The position numbers and the translations under genes were made by a program. This document shows positions 1-5,551 of a stretch of DNA of 64,000 nt, piece by piece; position 1 is the first letter of the stretch; the number at the start of each line of letters is the position of its first letter. Origin of the DNA: a virus; the IMG/VR virus record IMGVR_UViG_3300048580_000375, positions 3,304 through 67,303 of that record; one strand, 5' to 3'. Under the pieces are notes generated by a model. The model worked only from the letters and a program-made list of their open reading frames with translations. It was not told the DNA's origin and ran no database searches.

Positions 1-176
1 ATATGACTTAATTTAACTGATTCACTTTTAGTTCTAACAACAAATAAACCATTTTTACAACCATAAGATAATCCATTATTACTAATATTAAAGTTTTTAG
101 CCACCTCAACCCAAGTATGATTTTCATCATAGTATTTTTGTATTTCAACCCAATTATATGTAATATATTTACTCAT
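1..176 (-). CDS. 5' part of a protein running off the window (MSKYITYNWVEIQKYYDENHTWVEVAKNFNIS...), probably an HTH-containing homing endonuclease
   Basis: Open frame from ATG at 176 to the window edge, translated by hand. It has an HTH-like N-terminus and lies directly downstream of tRNA-Lys, like the other endonuclease genes in this array. Confidence 0.5.
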   Translation of the reverse strand, partial: MSKYITYNWVEIQKYYDENHTWVEVAKNFNISNNGLSYGCKNGLFVVRTKSESVKLSH

Positions 177-191
177 ATCTTATTATTTTAG

Positions 192-263
192 TCCTCCCGC
201 CGAGAGTCGAACTCGGCCCCATAGATTAAAAGTCTATTGCCTACACCAGTTTGCTACAAGAGG
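192..263 (-). tRNA. tRNA-Lys(UUU)
   Basis: Acceptor CCTCTTG/CGGGAGG; anticodon arm ATAGA-CTTTTAA-TCTAT; T arm CCGAG-TTCGACT-CTCGG. Confidence 0.9.
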
Positions 264-299
264 TTATTTTTTATATCACCCCCATACCAAGAGAGTGTT

Positions 300-320
300 T
301 TAATTTGGTTTTCGTTTCAT
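300..320 (-). promoter_or_regulatory. Mini-ORF MKRKPN upstream of tRNA-Lys
   Basis: ATG AAA CGA AAA CCA AAT TAA, followed by the hairpin CACTCTC-TTGGTAT-GGGGGTG just before tRNA-Lys(UUU). Confidence 0.5.
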
Positions 321-344
321 CGTCTTAATCTTTTTTTATTCTTT

Positions 345-417
345 GATCCAAATGTCGGATTCGAACCAACTTCCCATCATTACAAGTGACGTGTTTTCCC
401 AATTAAACTAATCTGGA
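345..417 (-). tRNA. tRNA-Thr(UGU)
   Basis: Acceptor TCCAGAT/ATTTGGA; anticodon arm CGTCA-CTTGTAA-TGATG; T arm GTTGG-TTCGAAT-CCGAC. Confidence 0.9.
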
Positions 418-424
418 ATATAAC

Positions 425-459
425 AAAAAACCCTGAACTTTTTAAGGGTTCAGGGTTTT
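425..459 (-). terminator. Attenuator terminator 1
   Basis: AAAACCCTGAAC-CCTTAAAAA-GTTCAGGGTTTTTT ending about 8 nt before tRNA-Thr. Confidence 0.85.
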
Positions 460-485
460 AATATTTATTTTAATATTATTATGTT

Positions 486-590
486 TTACGTTTTAGACAA
501 AACACTTCCTGAACCAAGTGAGATATTATTTCTACCCCCTTTTGTTGTTGCTTTCGCAGTTACCACCATATTTCTGTTCGTGTTTTTCAT
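486..590 (-). CDS. Attenuator leader peptide 1, 34 aa (MKNTNRNMVVTAKATTKGGRNNISLGSGSVLSKT)
   Basis: Short ORF between a promoter and a terminator. It contains ACT GCG AAA GCA ACA ACA AAA and the segment GGTTCAGG (515-508), which is complementary to the 5' arm of the terminator. Confidence 0.75.
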   Translation of the reverse strand: MKNTNRNMVVTAKATTKGGRNNISLGSGSVLSKT

Positions 591-599
591 ATTTGTATT

Positions 600-665
600 A
601 TATAAATAGTATGTTTTTTTCTTTTGTTATACAAAGATATAACTTTTTTTTTAAAATGTCAAACT
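600..665 (-). promoter_or_regulatory. Tandem Bacteroidota sigma70-type promoter and phage TATTTAT motif
   Basis: TTTGAC...TATATCTTTG (-33/-7 consensus TTTG / TAnnTTTG), followed by ACTATTTATA just before the leader ATG. Confidence 0.7.
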
Positions 666-670
666 TTTTT

Positions 671-1000
671 TTAATTTTTTTTCATCCCTTTATGTTTTTT
701 AATCACTTCAATGATTACTTCTACAGGAACATATGGATAAACGGTATCTGTAGGATTATTATTTGATTGAGCATAATCTATAATTAGTTCTTCATATTCA
801 GAAGGAAACCCAATCTCCATTTCGGTAAAATTACTACCAAATTGTCTTGGGTTTGAATATGAAAATTCCCCACCCTGAACTGACATAGAAAATCCATCAT
901 TACATTCTATCCTAGGTCTTGGATTCAAACTAATAGTGGTAGTTTTTTCCAACCACTCTTGAAATTTTACACTTACACTAATTTTCGATAAACTCCTCAT
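671..1000 (-). CDS. Conserved-type phage hypothetical protein
   Basis: 109 aa ORF with a CNDGFSMSVQ...VYPYVP motif pattern. Confidence 0.75.
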   Translation of the reverse strand: MRSLSKISVSVKFQEWLEKTTTISLNPRPRIECNDGFSMSVQGGEFSYSNPRQFGSNFTEMEIGFPSEYEELIIDYAQSNNNPTDTVYPYVPVEVIIEVIKKHKGMKKN

Positions 1001-1328
1001 ATTTTTTTAATAATATTATTAAATCGTTTTCTAACCTATTTTTTAATTCAGTTATATCTTCATAATACCAACCATCTAATTCGTAAATTAAATCGTCATT
1101 TATTGACATGGACATTCTATTTACCCCTGAATTAAATACATATAATTCATCACTATCACTATTACATAACATTATTGTCCAACCACCTAATTGTTGTCGG
1201 TTAGTTAAACTAATATTCCAAGTTAAACCAATATAAGTAAAAAGACGATAAGTTATATTTGAATCATCAACATTTGACACCCAATCATTAGTATATCTTA
1301 ACTTTTTGATTTGTTTTACACTTCTCAT
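978..1328 (-). CDS. Hypothetical protein
   Basis: 116 aa ORF, overlapping and coupled to the next gene. Confidence 0.7.
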   Translation of the reverse strand: MRSVKQIKKLRYTNDWVSNVDDSNITYRLFTYIGLTWNISLTNRQQLGGWTIMLCNSDSDELYVFNSGVNRMSMSINDDLIYELDGWYYEDITELKNRLENDLIILLKKYEEFIEN

Positions 1329-1339
1329 ACTTTGATTTT

Positions 1340-1726
1340 TTAGTAATTTTCATAAAATTTCTCCATTCTTTCCATTACCACATCTAAACTCCAACCACTT
1401 GAACTCTTTTGGTCGTTCCAATGAAAGTAACCCATTTGTATTTTCTCAACACTCCTGGAAATTGACTTGTCGTGTACAAATTCTGGCATACCACCATTAC
1501 CTAAATCCTTGTTGTAGTTACAACGATACTCAACAACTATGTCTTTACCATTGAATTTTTTCGTGTAACGTATTTTAGATTTACCTTTCATTCGTGTCCA
1601 ACCGTGATTAGACATATAAACATCCATTTGTTCGATAACACTATTTTTTGTTACCTCTAAAAAAGCTTGTCTTTCTTCTTCCTGTTTTTTAAGGAAATCG
1701 TAATATTGTTTAACTGTGTTATACAT
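1340..1726 (-). CDS. Hypothetical protein (early-type)
   Basis: 128 aa ORF downstream of a host-type promoter. Confidence 0.75.
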   Translation of the reverse strand: MYNTVKQYYDFLKKQEEERQAFLEVTKNSVIEQMDVYMSNHGWTRMKGKSKIRYTKKFNGKDIVVEYRCNYNKDLGNGGMPEFVHDKSISRSVEKIQMGYFHWNDQKSSSGWSLDVVMERMEKFYENY

Positions 1727-1744
1727 ATCTGTTTTGTTAATTAC

Positions 1745-1780
1745 AATACAAATATACCCCTTTTTTTAATATTTACAAAT
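1745..1780 (-). promoter_or_regulatory. Bacteroidota sigma70-type promoter
   Basis: TTTGTAAAT...GGTATATTTGTAT. Confidence 0.6.
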
Positions 1781-1796
1781 TTTTTTAATTTTTTTT

Positions 1797-1869
1797 GTGG
1801 AATATCTGAAATTCGAATCCAAGCCTTACCCTGTTTAGGGTCTGCACATCCTTATGTGCTTTTATCCCA
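1797..1869 (-). pseudogene. tRNA-like element with aberrant anticodon arm
   Basis: Acceptor TGGGATA/TATTCCA; D arm GCAC..GTGC; TTCGAAT loop; anticodon hairpin ACCCT-AAAC-AGGGT is non-canonical. Confidence 0.6.
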
Positions 1870-1873
1870 TTCG

Positions 1874-1903
1874 TACTACCAACCGGATTTGAACCGACAA
1901 CCT
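1874..1903 (-). tRNA. 3' half of a split tRNA
   Basis: AGGTT-GTCGG-TTCAAAT-CCGGT-TGGTAGT-A; the acceptor strand is the exact complement of ACTACCA at 2651-2657. Confidence 0.75.
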
Positions 1904-2472
1904 TATAATAAATTAAATAAATGTTTATTATGGTACTCCCTATGGCAATTAGAACAAAGTACCTCACACTTATTTAATTCAGGTATTAATTTATCAAACG
2001 ATTTAAGATTACCGCCAGATATCCCAAATTCTTTTTCATTACTATCTTTATGATGTAAATCTAACGCACCTACACATCTATTATAACCACATTTACTACA
2101 CTTACCACCTAAATACTTTAAACATTTAATTTTAATATTCAAACGCCATTGTCTATGCTTTTCATATTGTTTATCACGTAATTCATCTTTTGTTTTAAAT
2201 TTCTTTGGCGTCTTACCGGTATATTTTTTTACCGTACCATATGAAATACCTAATTTTTTAGCGATTTCTTTTTTTGTAATCGATCCGTCATTTAATTCTT
2301 CAATTACTTTAATTAATTCATTAGTTATTTTACTACCCCTATTATTTATAGGGTTGTTTAACCCTTCTTTTTTAAGATGATATGATATTATACCTTTACC
2401 TATATTCAGTTTTTTAGATATATCATCATATGACATATTTTCCCTTCTTAATTTTAAAATTTGATCCCTCAT
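1903..2472 (-). CDS. HNH homing endonuclease with N-terminal HTH
   Basis: GGKCSKCGY...ALDLHH...KCEVLCSNCHREYH motif; HTH-like segments. Confidence 0.9.
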   Translation of the reverse strand: MRDQILKLRRENMSYDDISKKLNIGKGIISYHLKKEGLNNPINNRGSKITNELIKVIEELNDGSITKKEIAKKLGISYGTVKKYTGKTPKKFKTKDELRDKQYEKHRQWRLNIKIKCLKYLGGKCSKCGYNRCVGALDLHHKDSNEKEFGISGGNLKSFDKLIPELNKCEVLCSNCHREYHNKHLFNLL

Positions 2473-2522
2473 ATTTATTTATTTAATAATAAATACATTA
2501 AAAAACTAAAAAGGTTCAATTG

Positions 2523-2594
2523 TTGTGGGTACGAGAATCGAACTCGTATGACAAACGTATAAGATTCGCAGCCTAACCATTAACTGAACCCACA
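2523..2594 (-). tRNA. tRNA-Ile(UAU)
   Basis: Acceptor TGTGGGT/ACCCACA; anticodon arm CGAAT-CTTATAC-GTTTG; T arm ACGAG-TTCGATT-CTCGT. Confidence 0.85.
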
Positions 2595-2607
2595 ATAAAA
2601 ATACTTC

Positions 2608-2657
2608 AAATAATATTCAACCAATTACCCTGCTCTCACCAATTGAGCTATGGTAGT
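2608..2657 (-). tRNA. 5' half of a split tRNA
   Basis: ACTACCA-TA-GCTC-AATTGGTGA-GAGC-A followed by an irregular hairpin; no adjacent T arm. Confidence 0.75.
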
Positions 2658-2667
2658 ATATTATTTG

Positions 2668-2740
2668 TGGGGACGGGTGGTTACGATCCACCTCCTTCAG
2701 TTTTTCAGACTGACGCTTCTACCAAGTTAGCTTCATCCCC
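2668..2740 (-). tRNA. tRNA-Phe(GAA)
   Basis: Acceptor GGGGATG/CGTCCCC; anticodon arm TCAGT-CTGAAAA-ACTGA; atypical T loop ATCGTAA. Confidence 0.9.
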
Positions 2741-2749
2741 TTTTATTTG

Positions 2750-2822
2750 TACTCCCACCCAGATTTGAACTGGGATCCCCACCTTATCAGGGTGGTATCC
2801 TCACCGATTAGACGATGGGAGC
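2750..2822 (-). tRNA. tRNA-Ile(GAU)
   Basis: Acceptor GCTCCCA/TGGGAGT; anticodon arm CCACC-CTGATAA-GGTGG; T arm CCCAG-TTCAAAT-CTGGG. Confidence 0.85.
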
Positions 2823-2832
2823 GTATATTTTG

Positions 2833-2905
2833 TATTCCGTACGGGATTTGAACCCGTAATCTTTTCCTTGAAAGGGAAACGACTTAACCATTTGTCCAAC
2901 GGAAC
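2833..2905 (-). tRNA. tRNA-Glu(UUC)
   Basis: Acceptor GTTCCGT/ACGGAAT; anticodon arm TTTCC-CTTTCAA-GGAAA. Confidence 0.9.
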
Positions 2906-2916
2906 ATTTATTTTAG

Positions 2917-2993
2917 CGGTACCAGTGGAATTCGAATCCACCTGTTTTTCCCGAGTGACAGTCGGGTAGCCACACCTAGCAGCCCCTGATACC
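2917..2993 (-). tRNA. tRNA-Asp(GUC)
   Basis: Acceptor GGTATCA/TGGTACC with G discriminator; anticodon arm CCCGA-CTGTCAC-TCGGG. Confidence 0.9.
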
Positions 2994-3011
2994 ATATTTT
3001 TAAAGAACTAT

Positions 3012-3046
3012 AAAACAAAAAACCCAAACTTATTAGGTTTGGGTTT
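3012..3046 (-). terminator. Attenuator terminator 2
   Basis: AAACCCAAAC-CTAATAA-GTTTGGGTTTTTTGTTTT about 20 nt before tRNA-Asp. Confidence 0.85.
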
Positions 3047-3073
3047 CTCTTAATTTAATCTAACTACACTTTA

Positions 3074-3151
3074 TTAGACACAAAGATATCCCAAACTGAG
3101 GTTTCTATCCTCAATCACGTTAAATTCAAATATGTTAATAATTGTTGTCAT
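3074..3151 (-). CDS. Attenuator leader peptide 2, 25 aa (MTTIINIFEFNVIEDRNLSLGYLCV)
   Basis: ATT ATT AAC ATA TTT GAA TTT AAC GTG ATT GAG GAT, then GTTTGGG (3096-3090) complementary to the terminator 5' arm CCCAAAC. Confidence 0.8.
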   Translation of the reverse strand: MTTIINIFEFNVIEDRNLSLGYLCV

Positions 3152-3171
3152 AATCTTTTTTTTTAATTGTT

Positions 3172-3870
3172 TTACTTTCTTCCTTTAACCCAACCATCTA
3201 ATTGATAAGTTTCAAGGCCTTCTTTTTTAATCTTTTTGTTAGTACCATCTTTGGTTATCCAACACGTACCGAATTGGCTATTTGATTCACCAACACCATT
3301 ACCTTTAGATGATTCAGACATTAGTTTCTTAGTTTCTTCAGAATGTTTTTTATTCTTAAAGGTACCTTCAGAAAAACCAGCATTTGAGAACCCTATTTTA
3401 GTTTTTAAAATCCAATCATCTTTTAATGTTTTATCATTTTCTAATGATATTCTAAAATTTTTACTTATTTCACTTTGAAAATTATCACCAAATTTATTCT
3501 TTAAAAATTCGTTAGTTTTTAATCTACCATTTTTAACACCTTCAGTAAAAAATTTAATTTTATGTTCTTCTGAACTAAAACCCCCATAACCACCTACTTT
3601 TAGATTTATACAATCAATTTTAGCAATTTCGTTTAAATTAACAATTTCACCCTCTCTATTTTTTAGTTCTTCTCTTGTTTTACAAAATTCAAGTATTTCC
3701 CTAATAAAATTTTCTTTACCGTGTTTGTTAATAGAATACCTTAACCTAGTACCACTACCCAAATAACCATCATCTAAATCATCAGTACTATGCATTCCTA
3801 TATAATATTTACCACTTAATATATTTGTGGTTTTATATATGAAATGATACTTTTTTTCTTTTCTCGCCAT
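3172..3870 (-). CDS. GIY-YIG (Seg-like) homing endonuclease with NUMOD3
   Basis: FIYKTTN..GKYYIGMH...YLGSG motif; KHSEETKKLMSES NUMOD3-type motif. Confidence 0.9.
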   Translation of the reverse strand: MARKEKKYHFIYKTTNILSGKYYIGMHSTDDLDDGYLGSGTRLRYSINKHGKENFIREILEFCKTREELKNREGEIVNLNEIAKIDCINLKVGGYGGFSSEEHKIKFFTEGVKNGRLKTNEFLKNKFGDNFQSEISKNFRISLENDKTLKDDWILKTKIGFSNAGFSEGTFKNKKHSEETKKLMSESSKGNGVGESNSQFGTCWITKDGTNKKIKKEGLETYQLDGWVKGRK

Positions 3871-3926
3871 ATCTATCTTTTATAATAAATATGCAGAAAA
3901 ATGTAAAAGTACAAAAAACATTGACT

Positions 3927-4002
3927 TGGTTGCGGAGGATGGATTCGAACCACCGACCTCAAGGTTATGAGCCTTGCGAGCTACCACTGCTACTACTCCA
4001 CA
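3927..4002 (-). tRNA. tRNA-Met(CAU), initiator-like, with encoded CCA
   Basis: Acceptor TGTGGAG/CTCCGCA-ACCA; AGCAGTGGTAGCT D arm; anticodon arm CAAGG-CTCATAA-CCTTG. Confidence 0.9.
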
Positions 4003-4017
4003 ATATATTTTCTTACT

Positions 4018-4082
4018 AATAAATAGTATGTTTTTTTAAATTGTGATACAAATATACTATTTTTTTTCTATTTGTCAAACTT
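4018..4082 (-). promoter_or_regulatory. Tandem host-type promoter and TATTTAT motif upstream of tRNA-Met
   Basis: TTTGACAAAT...TATATTTG...CATACTATTTAT; near copy of the cassette at 600-680. Confidence 0.7.
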
Positions 4083-4093
4083 TTTTTTAATTT

Positions 4094-4537
4094 TTATCCC
4101 CATTGTTGGACTGAAAAAAATATTTTATCGTTCATTTCATCAACCACCTCAGCCATTATCCAACCGTGATTTTCAGGTAATTTACTATCATCACCAATAA
4201 CTTTAAAATATGTCAATCCACCTTCTTCAATTATTCCACCATAAAACAAATCCATTAATTCATCATAAGCTGTTTTTTTAAATCCATAACAACTATCACC
4301 GTCAAGATCTTTGGTTTTTTTGAAGTGTTCAGACCATATTAATATTGGTTGATTCGGATCATTATCATCTATTGAAAAATCAAATTCATCCAAATATTTC
4401 TTTAGTTCTTCAGCTCTTTCATCGATATATCTTGGAATAAATAATTTACCTTTTTTTGGATTTTCATCTTCTTGGATTACCTTATTAATAATGTTGGTTA
4501 ATTCTTGTTCTGTTATTTTAATCTTCTTCATATCCAT
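4094..4537 (-). CDS. Hypothetical protein with KKIKITE N-terminal motif
   Basis: ORF track; TATTTAT motif upstream. Confidence 0.75.
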   Translation of the reverse strand: MDMKKIKITEQELTNIINKVIQEDENPKKGKLFIPRYIDERAEELKKYLDEFDFSIDDNDPNQPILIWSEHFKKTKDLDGDSCYGFKKTAYDELMDLFYGGIIEEGGLTYFKVIGDDSKLPENHGWIMAEVVDEMNDKIFFSVQQWG

Positions 4538-4603
4538 AAATAGTTTATTTTGTTTTATTCTGATACAAAGGTAATATAATTTTTTTATACTTCCAAATGT
4601 TTT

Positions 4604-5551
4604 TTAAATTATTTCAATTTCACTTAAATGTCTGTAATTCAATAACGTATTATAAAAATCTTCTTTATTTTCAAATAACTTTCCTAAATCTCTATCATCT
4701 GGATAATTTAAAACAAATATACGATTTCTTAATTTCCCAGCATTTAATTTCTGATACATCCCATATATTTGTTGGGTGGCGTCAGGATCTAAAGCAATAA
4801 CAATATCAGATTTAGCGTTATCATATATTGCTTTCCATTTAAACTCTGATAATGACTTACCCAATAATAAGAAGTGATTTGGTATTGGTAATCCATCAAA
4901 TACACCTTCAGTTATATATAATGGTTTTTCCCAATCGATTCTATTCTCATTAAATATTAAATCATCTTTATCGGTGTCAGGGTTTAGATATTTTTGTTTA
5001 GCACCAATATATGACCTAGTTGAGAAATAAATAATATTACCTTTCTTATCGTATAATGGAACAACTATTCTTTGCTTATATTTTCCTTCTAAACAAAACC
5101 CAATGTTAAATTCTTTTAATAAATCATCGGTATAACCTCTTGATATAATGTAGTTATAAGGTTGAAGGTGAATATAATTTCTTTTATTTATAATTGAAAA
5201 TGGGATGAATTCTTTTGGGAATTCAGTAATATTTTTATCTTTTTTCGTATATTTTCTCTTATTTATTTGATAATCGTATTCAGGAGCAATTACTTTAAAT
5301 GTATTATAATGCTGTTTATTTCCAAATTTTTTAATAATCCCATCAATTGTTCCTGGAGTTCTTTCACAAGCCCAACAATGGGATAAACCTTCTTCAAGAT
5401 TTATTTCAAGATTTCCTTTCCCATCATATTCAACGTTTTTATCTGCCGAACATAATGGACAATCAACAGTTATTTGTGAGTTTCCGTGATATGTTTTTTT
5501 TATGTTTCCAAAAATTGAAACAACTAAGTCTGTTATAAGAGAATAATCCAT
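4604..5551 (-). CDS. DNA primase (zinc finger plus TOPRIM)
   Basis: CPLC...HCWAC zinc finger; YITEGVFD and ALDPDA TOPRIM motifs; KYLNP. Confidence 0.9.
   Translation of the reverse strand: MDYSLITDLVVSIFGNIKKTYHGNSQITVDCPLCSADKNVEYDGKGNLEINLEEGLSHCWACERTPGTIDGIIKKFGNKQHYNTFKVIAPEYDYQINKRKYTKKDKNITEFPKEFIPFSIINKRNYIHLQPYNYIISRGYTDDLLKEFNIGFCLEGKYKQRIVVPLYDKKGNIIYFSTRSYIGAKQKYLNPDTDKDDLIFNENRIDWEKPLYITEGVFDGLPIPNHFLLLGKSLSEFKWKAIYDNAKSDIVIALDPDATQQIYGMYQKLNAGKLRNRIFVLNYPDDRDLGKLFENKEDFYNTLLNYRHLSEIEII

Follow-up and report, generated by a model that had tools for sequence, protein, structure and literature searches.

Intronless homing is reportedly practised by SegF of phage T4 and by MobE, whose gene is said to split nrdA in phage Aeh1. 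Cleave-and-Rescue (ClvR) gene drives employ a nuclease that destroys a needed gene and a linked divergent copy that rescues it; they act in trans and spread by killing non-carriers. In archaea such as Nanoarchaeum and Caldivirga, the halves of split or permuted transfer RNAs (tRNAs) are encoded apart, carry complementary acceptor strands, are transcribed separately and are joined into working tRNAs. A phage system with a direct link to tRNA genes is SegB of T4, a GIY-YIG endonuclease encoded in a tRNA cluster, which cleaves at the T-psi-C motif in tRNA genes of relatives that lack it and is spread together with adjacent tRNA genes (PMC2330249, where MobE of Aeh1 is mentioned as well). SegB homologues are widely linked with tRNAs and can amplify them (PMC13096335). 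HNH genes are the most widespread coding sequences in mycobacterial and mycobacteriophage tRNA arrays and have been implicated in the diversity of the tRNA repertoire (PMC5966550, citing Pope et al. 2014). In this study, we describe a different arrangement from the virus record IMGVR_UViG_3300048580_000375, of which a stretch of 64,000 nucleotides (nt) was analysed as a whole and is called the window. Between the two halves of a tRNA gene lie an intact second tRNA gene and the gene of a predicted HNH nuclease. The cassette most likely sits in its own target, the tRNA-Ile(UAU) gene of the phage, and we consider it probable that it came there by intronless homing as a free-standing HNH cassette carrying a linked replacement tRNA.

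All coordinates are those of the window, and the split unit and its tRNA operon lie on the minus strand. Labels with L denote virus loci or contigs, and labels with X denote sequencing runs that were compared. The unit is composed of the following parts.

2629..2657, minus strand: 5' half of the disrupted tRNA-Ile(UAU), called type A, 29 nt, with the acceptor strand, U8/A9, the complete D arm and positions 26-28
2595..2628, minus strand: left spacer, 34 nt, holding a hairpin with GTT
2522..2594, minus strand: nested tRNA-Ile(UAU), called type B, called by ARAGORN and scoring 47.8 bits with the Rfam tRNA model against a gathering score of 29
2473..2521, minus strand: spacer, 49 nt, from the nested tRNA to the start codon of the HNH gene
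1903..2472, minus strand: free-standing HNH endonuclease gene (open reading frame, ORF), 189 amino acids, with two N-terminal helix-turn-helix (HTH) domains by Pfam and a C-terminal nuclease motif
1874..1904, minus strand: 3' half of the disrupted tRNA-Ile(UAU), 31 nt, with position 43, the variable loop, the T arm, the acceptor strand and the discriminator A

The 5' half reads ACTACCA, TA, the D arm GCTC/AATTGGTGA/GAGC and AGG, and the 3' half reads AAGGTT, the T arm GTCGG/TTCAAAT/CCGGT, TGGTAGT and A. Seven of seven Watson-Crick pairs are formed by their acceptor strands, just as the original prediction on this DNA had read. Viral contigs were scanned for the 5' half, and the loci L004 and L005 were found in this way. 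In both, the two halves are one contiguous 75-nt tRNA-Ile(UAU) called by ARAGORN (L004, 2891-2965; L005, 1862-1788). The 5' half is identical at 29/29 positions in L004 (2891-2919) and in L005, and the 3' half at 31/31 positions in L004 (2934-2964) and at 30/31 in L005. The intact gene occupies the same slot, after tRNA-Phe and before the same tRNA-like RNA. Compared with it, the window has exactly ATGCTTATACCATC (tRNA positions 29-42, 14 nt) replaced by 724 nt. Since the entire loop and the greater part of the anticodon stem fall within these positions, no decoding tRNA is possible from the halves. Uninterrupted alleles are thus present in L004, L005 and also in a lake contig, and the halves do not belong to unrelated decayed tRNAs in the relatives, a case that the original prediction had kept in view. 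Because the halves are joined as tRNA-Ile(UAU) in relatives, the interrupted gene is identified from its alleles as tRNA-Ile(UAU), not tRNA-Asn. The link to Asn that had been drawn earlier from GTT falls away, as the GTT hairpin is insert DNA. The 5' half had also been drawn too long, to about 2608; its limit is 2629, and the bases 2628..2608 belong to the insert.

ARAGORN with its intron options did not call the split gene. When the halves were joined in silico with 186 junction combinations per locus, ARAGORN called some tRNA in 38-159 of the 186 whatever the junction, and the procedure is non-discriminating. A tRNA-like match at 1949..1874, composed of the 3' half and ATTGCCA inside the ORF, was rejected; it scores 22.3 bits against the gathering score of 29, and the score comes from the true 3' half.

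The 724-nt insert consists of the 34-nt spacer, the nested tRNA, the 49-nt spacer and the HNH ORF, which agrees with the roughly 700 nt holding a tRNA-Ile(UAU) and an HNH ORF that had been noticed before. Canonical tRNA features are present in type B, namely the loop CUUAUAC, U8, G18G19, G53-C61 and the T-loop UUCGAUU. In the alignment of types A and B, the anticodon loop CTTATAC is common to both and every stem differs in sequence. The broken and the nested tRNA, both with the anticodon UAU, read the same codon, a point that the original prediction had missed. Besides the copies of the cassette, type B was found in no other viral contig by two exact-match scans, which are a weak test. The codon AUA makes up 3.94% of all codons and 43% of the Ile codons in a crude set of 44 ORFs of at least 150 amino acids. 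A phage with such AUA usage plausibly profits from its own AUA decoder, and a cassette destroying that decoder would therefore be selected to replace it. At the left border of the insert, AGG and the first bases of the spacer (2620-2631, minus strand) read AGGGTAATTGGT. This is a 12-nt identity to the stretch after the anticodon hairpin of a type C allele (L007:3976-3987), which lies in the same slot and belongs to a tRNA class treated below. The match may mark an older recombination between types A and C at the AGG microhomology, or it may be due to chance.

The stop codon TAA of the HNH ORF (1905..1903) is found at the 3' half as had been noted, and it overlaps the first two bases of that half. 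The C-terminal 100 residues of the protein are covered by PHROG 2255 (E 4.9e-24) and PHROG 3106 (E 1.7e-20), both annotated as 'HNH endonuclease'. The nuclease motif is CxxC..HH..N-CxxCH..H, and C125, C128, H140, H141, K147, E165, C169, C173, N175, C176, H177 and H181 are invariant in nine homologues. A model by AlphaFold2 (AF2) has a predicted local distance difference test score (pLDDT) of 82.9. A sequence search of the PDB with the protein gave weak HTH matches only. No GIY-YIG domain was found in the cassette ORF, which has HTH and HNH only; the GIY-YIG gene of the locus is a separate ORF at 3172-3870. The protein is predicted to be a site-specific nuclease of the HNH (beta-beta-alpha-metal) type.

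The distribution of the unit was compared among assemblies and sequencing runs. The HNH protein is 100% identical in three metagenome contigs, and the split unit is also present in the independent assemblies L009, L010 and L011. L010 is the window's own phage with 99.9% identity. L009 represents a different background, in which the halves and the insert show 1 mismatch in about 790 nt against the window, while the upstream tRNA block (Asp to Phe) is 76% identical and the downstream flank is about 60% identical or of different content. On the downstream side, the flank of L009 shows 98% identity with the cassette-less L004, 94% with L007 and 66% with the window; on the upstream side, it shows 87% with L005 and 74% with the window. 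The cassette of L011 adjoins a 3' half of the L005 type, with the G>A variant at 1898, which makes a third background. Among window-type copies, no more than 4 base differences are seen. L007 holds a third allele, type C, in the slot and has no endonuclease. Fifteen DNA runs from lake and freshwater metagenomes contain at least 0.88 of the sampled words of the unit. With independent assemblies and 15 runs, the unit is therefore not an assembly artefact. In run X3, the 784-nt unit lies on a contig of its own (1875-2658), and other contigs pass from the 5' half into an intact allele variant. A 1504-nt contig of X8 has the cassette in an L009-like background. For RNA libraries, the evidence consists of assembled contigs and does not prove transcription: a contig of X18, a library that may hold DNA, connects 1904 with 2629 by just the 14 letters that the window lacks, and a contig of X16 covers 2226-2443, which is part of the ORF and not the nested tRNA. 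Carriers and non-carriers appear to co-occur in lake samples. A blastn search of a phage database gave generic tRNA and HNH similarity only and no close relative.

Presence and absence at one site were found among close relatives, as the gene is intact in L004 and L005 and both alleles occur in lake runs. The element is also much more conserved than its flanks in different backgrounds (1 mismatch in about 790 nt against 66-76% in the flanks). Over a unit of 783 nt, two phage backgrounds differ at 1 base, and their flanks are 66-74% identical. A near-identical cassette on diverged flanks is, as far as sequence can tell, the signature of a free-standing homing endonuclease. The uninterrupted alleles and the near-identical cassette in diverged backgrounds support the mobile tRNA and HNH cassette, recently inserted in a tRNA gene, that had been offered as one of two explanations.

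The locus can now be set against the described systems. With SegF and MobE it shares the absence of an intron, presence/absence polymorphism with marker exclusion, and a host gene that can be split. However, the split nrdA halves of Aeh1 still make a working enzyme, whereas the gene split here is dead and would be replaced in function by a second gene of the cassette. Its logic resembles that of ClvR, with a nuclease gene tightly linked to a divergent copy that would rescue a needed gene; types A and B have the anticodon loop in common and differ in every stem, and AUA makes up 3.94% of codons. Unlike ClvR, the element would copy itself into the cut site, and its tRNA is probably beneficial rather than essential; the likeness is an analogy only and not a family relationship. 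The halves of archaeal split tRNAs hold a whole tRNA, but 14 nt are missing in the window, where halves without an anticodon arm flank a selfish cassette in a single transcript. T4 SegB is similar in that a free-standing endonuclease gene lies in a phage tRNA operon, the end of the ORF abuts a tRNA and expression is from the tRNA precursor (PMC2330249; PMC13096335). SegB is a GIY-YIG protein, whereas the window protein is an HNH protein with two HTH domains. Moreover, segB lies between tRNA genes and its T-psi-C motif is near tRNA 3' ends, whereas the window cassette is inside a tRNA gene at the anticodon stem and leaves two halves and a substitute with the same anticodon. Group I introns with endonuclease ORFs in tRNA anticodon loops are likewise mobile and interrupt the tRNA gene near the anticodon (PMC3984707), but the window cassette is without a ribozyme core or splicing, and its neutrality would come from the spare gene. 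In the excerpt of the work on mycobacterial arrays, neither a nested or split tRNA nor a same-anticodon replacement is described beside the HNH genes (PMC5966550).

We propose the following cycle for the element. The endonuclease would be made by read-through of the tRNA operon. In a co-infecting relative that has no cassette, it would recognise the intact type A gene as DNA, at and near the 5' strand of its anticodon stem, and would nick or cut that gene. The break would be repaired from the cassette-bearing genome and the 724-nt insert copied in, which fits the pattern observed in the population. In this repair, both halves of the tRNA and, next to them, the tRNA-Phe and tRNA-like genes would act as homology arms; tRNA-Phe(GAA) is probably part of the upstream homology or of a co-conversion tract, and the tRNA-like RNA would serve as the downstream homology. 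Carriers have lost 14 nt of the anticodon arm, so that the presumed recognition site would be destroyed and the carrier would be immune. The insertion kills the tRNA and no ribozyme is present to excise it. The divergent and presumably cleavage-resistant tRNA-Ile(UAU) of the cassette would maintain AUA decoding, and carriers would thus pay little cost. The halves would be recent remnants doubling as homology arms, not working RNA.

The same layout was found in other lineages. Homologues of the HNH protein lie mostly in tRNA arrays, with a tRNA within 300 nt in about 10 of 15 distinct locus groups. A half-tRNA scan was carried out for an orphan T arm and acceptor strand pairing at 7/7 positions with an orphan acceptor strand and D arm within 3 kilobases (kb) upstream. 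It returned 17 orphan-orphan rows in 142 sources. Eight segments were checked by tblastn against the window HNH, and four contain a relative (42-54% identity). In these, a tRNA half, a whole tRNA, a related HNH gene and a tRNA half follow each other.

L003 (the same as L064): split tRNA CAU; nested type C tRNA, UAU; HNH 44% identical to the window
L116: split tRNA CAU; nested type C tRNA, UAU; HNH 44% identical to the window
L014: split Ile(UAU) with the CTTATAA loop kept in the 5' half; nested Arg(UCU); HNH 54% identical to the window
L023: split CAU, where two orphan 5' halves stand in tandem and the 3' part has a repeat of 84 nt; nested CAU; HNH 42% identical to the window

In the window, L003, L116 and L023, which are four of the five lineages, the 5' junction comes after the first 2-3 nt of the anticodon stem. 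In L003 and L116, the stop codon of the HNH ORF is the TAA in the anticodon loop of the split tRNA itself. Another intact Ile(UAU) lies about 95 nt past the 3' half in L014. The split CAU tRNAs of L003, L116 and L023 all have C4 and C5. The pairs C4-G69 and C5-G68, which we take to be marks of lysidine-type tRNA-Ile2, give a lead only for these tRNAs. Broken homologues exist as well, with an in-frame TGA in the nuclease of L003 and a frameshift in that of L016, which fits the usual life cycle of homing endonucleases. By tblastn, the other four segments (L136, L034, L032 and L017) contain no relative of the window HNH; other HNH types or intron-like inserts are present there.

Several further observations were made at these loci. 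At L002:3770-5130 (the same as L012 and L013), the closest full-length HNH relative (37% identity, with N-terminal HTH domains) has its end in a tRNA(UAC) of 87 nt. It is followed within 500 nt by a second tRNA-Val(UAC), unrelated to the first, and by an additional, chimeric copy of a tRNA-Ile(GAU); as in the window, same-anticodon tRNAs of different sequence stand beside a nuclease. At L025:1531-1560, an orphan 5' tRNA half (acceptor strand and D arm) is located about 50 nt upstream of an HNH homologue, and this contig stops 60 nt past the end of the ORF. L023 has a conserved element of some 185 nt (2648-2830) between the orphan 5' halves and an intact tRNA-Met; similar sequence precedes the tRNA-Met of L021, and no Rfam family matched the element at E<=10. 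A group I intron is found at L003:7883-8178 (Rfam, 84.2 bits). The tRNA genes at L017:3533-3782 and L032:6143-6652 have ORF-less inserts of 175-430 nt, which are intron-like by eye and have no Rfam match.

Other explanations of the window were weighed. The halves could pair as an acceptor, D and T module, a tRNA-like clamp of the kind offered as the other of the two earlier explanations, so that RNase P and the enzymes of the 3' end treat the 784-nt unit as one giant 'tRNA'. Such a clamp would fix the limits of the endonuclease mRNA or make it more stable, or it would give rise to a two-piece tRNA mimic. The fold z-score of -3.25 against 20 shuffles speaks for it, as does the end of the ORF in the anticodon-loop TAA in L003 and L116, and tRNA processing at the segB stop codon is proposed to limit expression in the SegB paper (PMC2330249). 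The halves are also intact in every copy seen. However, the window-type copies differ by at most 4 bases and all are nearly identical, and the intactness therefore reflects youth and says nothing on selection. In addition, a decoding product is impossible without positions 29-42, and the clamp would be severed when the nested tRNA is processed. We regard the clamp as unlikely. A passive scar is quite unlikely in our estimation. In that case, the array would have been reshuffled by ordinary or illegitimate recombination between co-infecting phages, with the HNH gene as a passenger. The tRNA genes of the array are indeed mosaic among relatives even where no nuclease is involved (Phe and Ile(GAU) in L004; 161 letters in L009, X3 and X8), and L007 has its third allele without HNH. 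Against a scar, the same layout with a related HNH recurs in five lineages on different tRNAs, the 5' junction is common at anticodon-stem positions 28-29 in four of the five, and sharp identity boundaries hug the cassette.

An intron of group I, group II or another kind that contains the ORF, with the nested tRNA as a part of it, is very improbable and was rejected. Group I introns are indeed known from tRNA genes of phages and bacteria (PMC3984707), intron-like tRNA inserts occur at L017 (250 nt) and L032 (510 nt), and L003 has a group I intron elsewhere in the locus (Rfam, 84 bits). Nevertheless, no intron family, RF00028 and RF00029 included, was found by Rfam at E<=10 in 1-5000 or in 1860-2670 alone, and the earlier remark that an intron core is absent holds. 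Just 34 + 49 = 83 nt of the insert remain outside the tRNA and the ORF, and no tRNA could result from splicing, as the exons lack 14 nt, the anticodon among them. Lastly, chance or a chimera of assembly, meaning unrelated decayed tRNAs or an artefactual join, has a practically negligible probability. The weak alternative alignment at 1949..1874 (22.3 bits, below the gathering score of 29) might favour it. It is refuted by the intact genes of L004 and L005, to whose two ends the halves correspond base for base, and by the independent copy in L009; moreover, three other assemblies and many runs contain the unit.

Homing with a replacement tRNA remains our preferred explanation, and the following points weigh against it. 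The target site is deduced solely from the position of the insertion. Type B is known solely from identical copies of the cassette and has no covariation support, and several G-U pairs are contained in its stems. The Pfam HNH family (PF01844) is below threshold with E 0.19. No PDB fold match was obtained by Foldseek for the AF2 model at E<=0.001; the best rows are paired-domain-like bipartite HTH proteins at E 0.077, and HNH proteins (Cap5, Gme) appear near E 0.6-0.9. The identity tract could come from ordinary recombination between co-infecting phages. The nested tRNA of L014 is Arg(UCU) and not Ile. The halves of L116 and L023 sum to a whole tRNA with no base lost, which may point to excision from the RNA or to some role of the halves. 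Finally, a long-range 8-bp acceptor pairing with the D and T hairpins appears in both the minimum free energy (MFE) structure and the centroid of the 793-nt RNA 1870-2662 (RNAfold), which also favours the clamp.

The source record is a 67.3-kb IMG/VR virus with an estimated completeness of about 20% (CheckV), and the G+C content of the window is 28%. The surroundings of the split unit contain the following features.

3172-3870, minus strand: Seg-like GIY-YIG homing endonuclease gene (PHROG 314, E 2.5e-40), between tRNA-Met and tRNA-Asp
3049..3017, minus strand: terminator-like hairpin upstream of the operon
2993..1798, minus strand: tight tRNA operon with Asp, Glu, Ile(GAU), Phe, the split unit and the tRNA-like RNA
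2667..2740, minus strand: tRNA-Phe(GAA), upstream neighbour of the split unit, with 2 mismatches to L009
1798..1868, minus strand: tRNA-like RNA without a 7-nt anticodon loop, downstream neighbour, kept beside intact and interrupted alleles

The array is mosaic gene by gene. The neighbouring genes (Ile-GAU, Glu and Phe) are swapped for unrelated same-anticodon alleles among close relatives; 161 letters are replaced between 2740 and 2905 in L009, X3 and X8, and the Phe and Ile(GAU) genes of L004 (2730-2882) differ from those of the window. The site of the GIY-YIG gene is only a gap of about 200 nt in L004 and L009, and this gene is thus present or absent among relatives. The tRNA-like RNA has acceptor, D and T arms and an 'anticodon' hairpin whose loop is 4-6 nt (ACCCU-AAAC-AGGGU). 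It is also present in L004, L005, L007 and L009, with changes in the T stem that preserve pairing; the L007 copy scores 22.7 bits with the Rfam tRNA model, and the fold z-score is -3.3 to -3.75. It recalls the small stable RNAs that end the T4 tRNA cluster (PMC2330249).

Signals for expression were searched as well. A scan for sigma-70 promoters did not find more sites than in shuffled sequence. TAnnTTTG motifs were seen by eye shortly upstream of ORF starts, with no Shine-Dalgarno sequence, at about 1745-1760 and about 3085-3095 (minus strand) and upstream of the HNH genes of L116 and L003. TAnnTTTG is presumably the -7 promoter type of Bacteroidota and would suggest a host of that phylum. 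In the 49-nt spacer 2473..2521, neither a Shine-Dalgarno sequence nor TAnnTTTG was seen by eye.

The tRNA class found in the slot of L007 was analysed separately. Type C is a 77-nt tRNA-Ile class with a non-cloverleaf core that is widespread and unannotated in phages. Its members include L007:3941-4017, L016:3196-3272 and 5128-5204, L003:3878-3954 and L116:9690-9766 (minus strand). The L007 allele, a gene of L016 and the genes nested in L003 and L116 have the motif UAGAAAGGNUANUUGGU in common. When viral contigs were scanned for it, at least 116 stretches were obtained, where by our own estimate about 100 chance matches are expected for 15 fixed bases. Among all loci compared, a T-loop-like UUCRA was nearby in 87/120 motif matches. 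Removal of duplicates left 52, and L060 and L090 were dropped for lack of a tRNA shape, which left 50. All 50 sequences are 76-77 nt long, with the anticodon loop CU-UAU-A in 39 and CU-GAU-A in 11. In the proposed structure, a 7-bp acceptor stem is followed by UAU and by a 3-bp helix, in which columns 11-13 pair with 37-39 and which surrounds a 4-bp anticodon hairpin and an invariant UAGAAA; after the 3-bp helix come a D-loop-like UARUUGGU and a normal T arm. Pairing is found in 97.9% of cells against 65.4% in shuffles, and the covariation score is 0.847 against 0.213. The pair 11-39 is CG in 35, AU in 13 and UA in 2 sequences and is never unpaired; since column 39 was free in the search pattern, its covariation is unbiased. 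A covariance model built from the alignment gives 84-94 bits for type C and at most 27 bits for canonical tRNAs, and with it no type C was found in the window or its record. ARAGORN misses type C, and the Rfam tRNA model gives 27.8 and 32.4 bits. In two crAss-like records of GenBank, no annotated feature covers the type C match. According to PMC11551756, every known bacterial tRNA is a cloverleaf. The strong covariation for a non-cloverleaf core in type C bears on that statement and on the annotation of phage tRNAs.

The overall result points to a new variant of free-standing homing endonucleases. Neither type C nor a tRNA gene that houses an endonuclease cassette together with a replacement tRNA was found described in the literature covered, mostly outside subscription journals. 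We tentatively suggest, as a possibility short of an even chance, that 'cut-and-replace' HNH elements form a natural class in phage tRNA arrays. They would home into the anticodon stem, be made harmless by a cleavage-resistant substitute tRNA and focus on AUA decoders (Ile-UAU, and CAU that is possibly lysidine-type Ile2), and they would drive a rapid turnover of tRNA alleles including the spread of type C. Homing endonucleases survive in conserved genes in three ways, namely in self-splicing introns or inteins, between genes, or by splitting a gene into two working parts. The present locus suggests a fourth way, which is to break the gene and bring a substitute. The locus is also a source of natural endonucleases whose recognition site may be the anticodon-stem part of tRNA-gene DNA. 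If the proposal is true, it would explain the mosaic tRNA arrays of phages, the adjacent same-anticodon tRNAs of unrelated sequence and the orphan tRNA halves.

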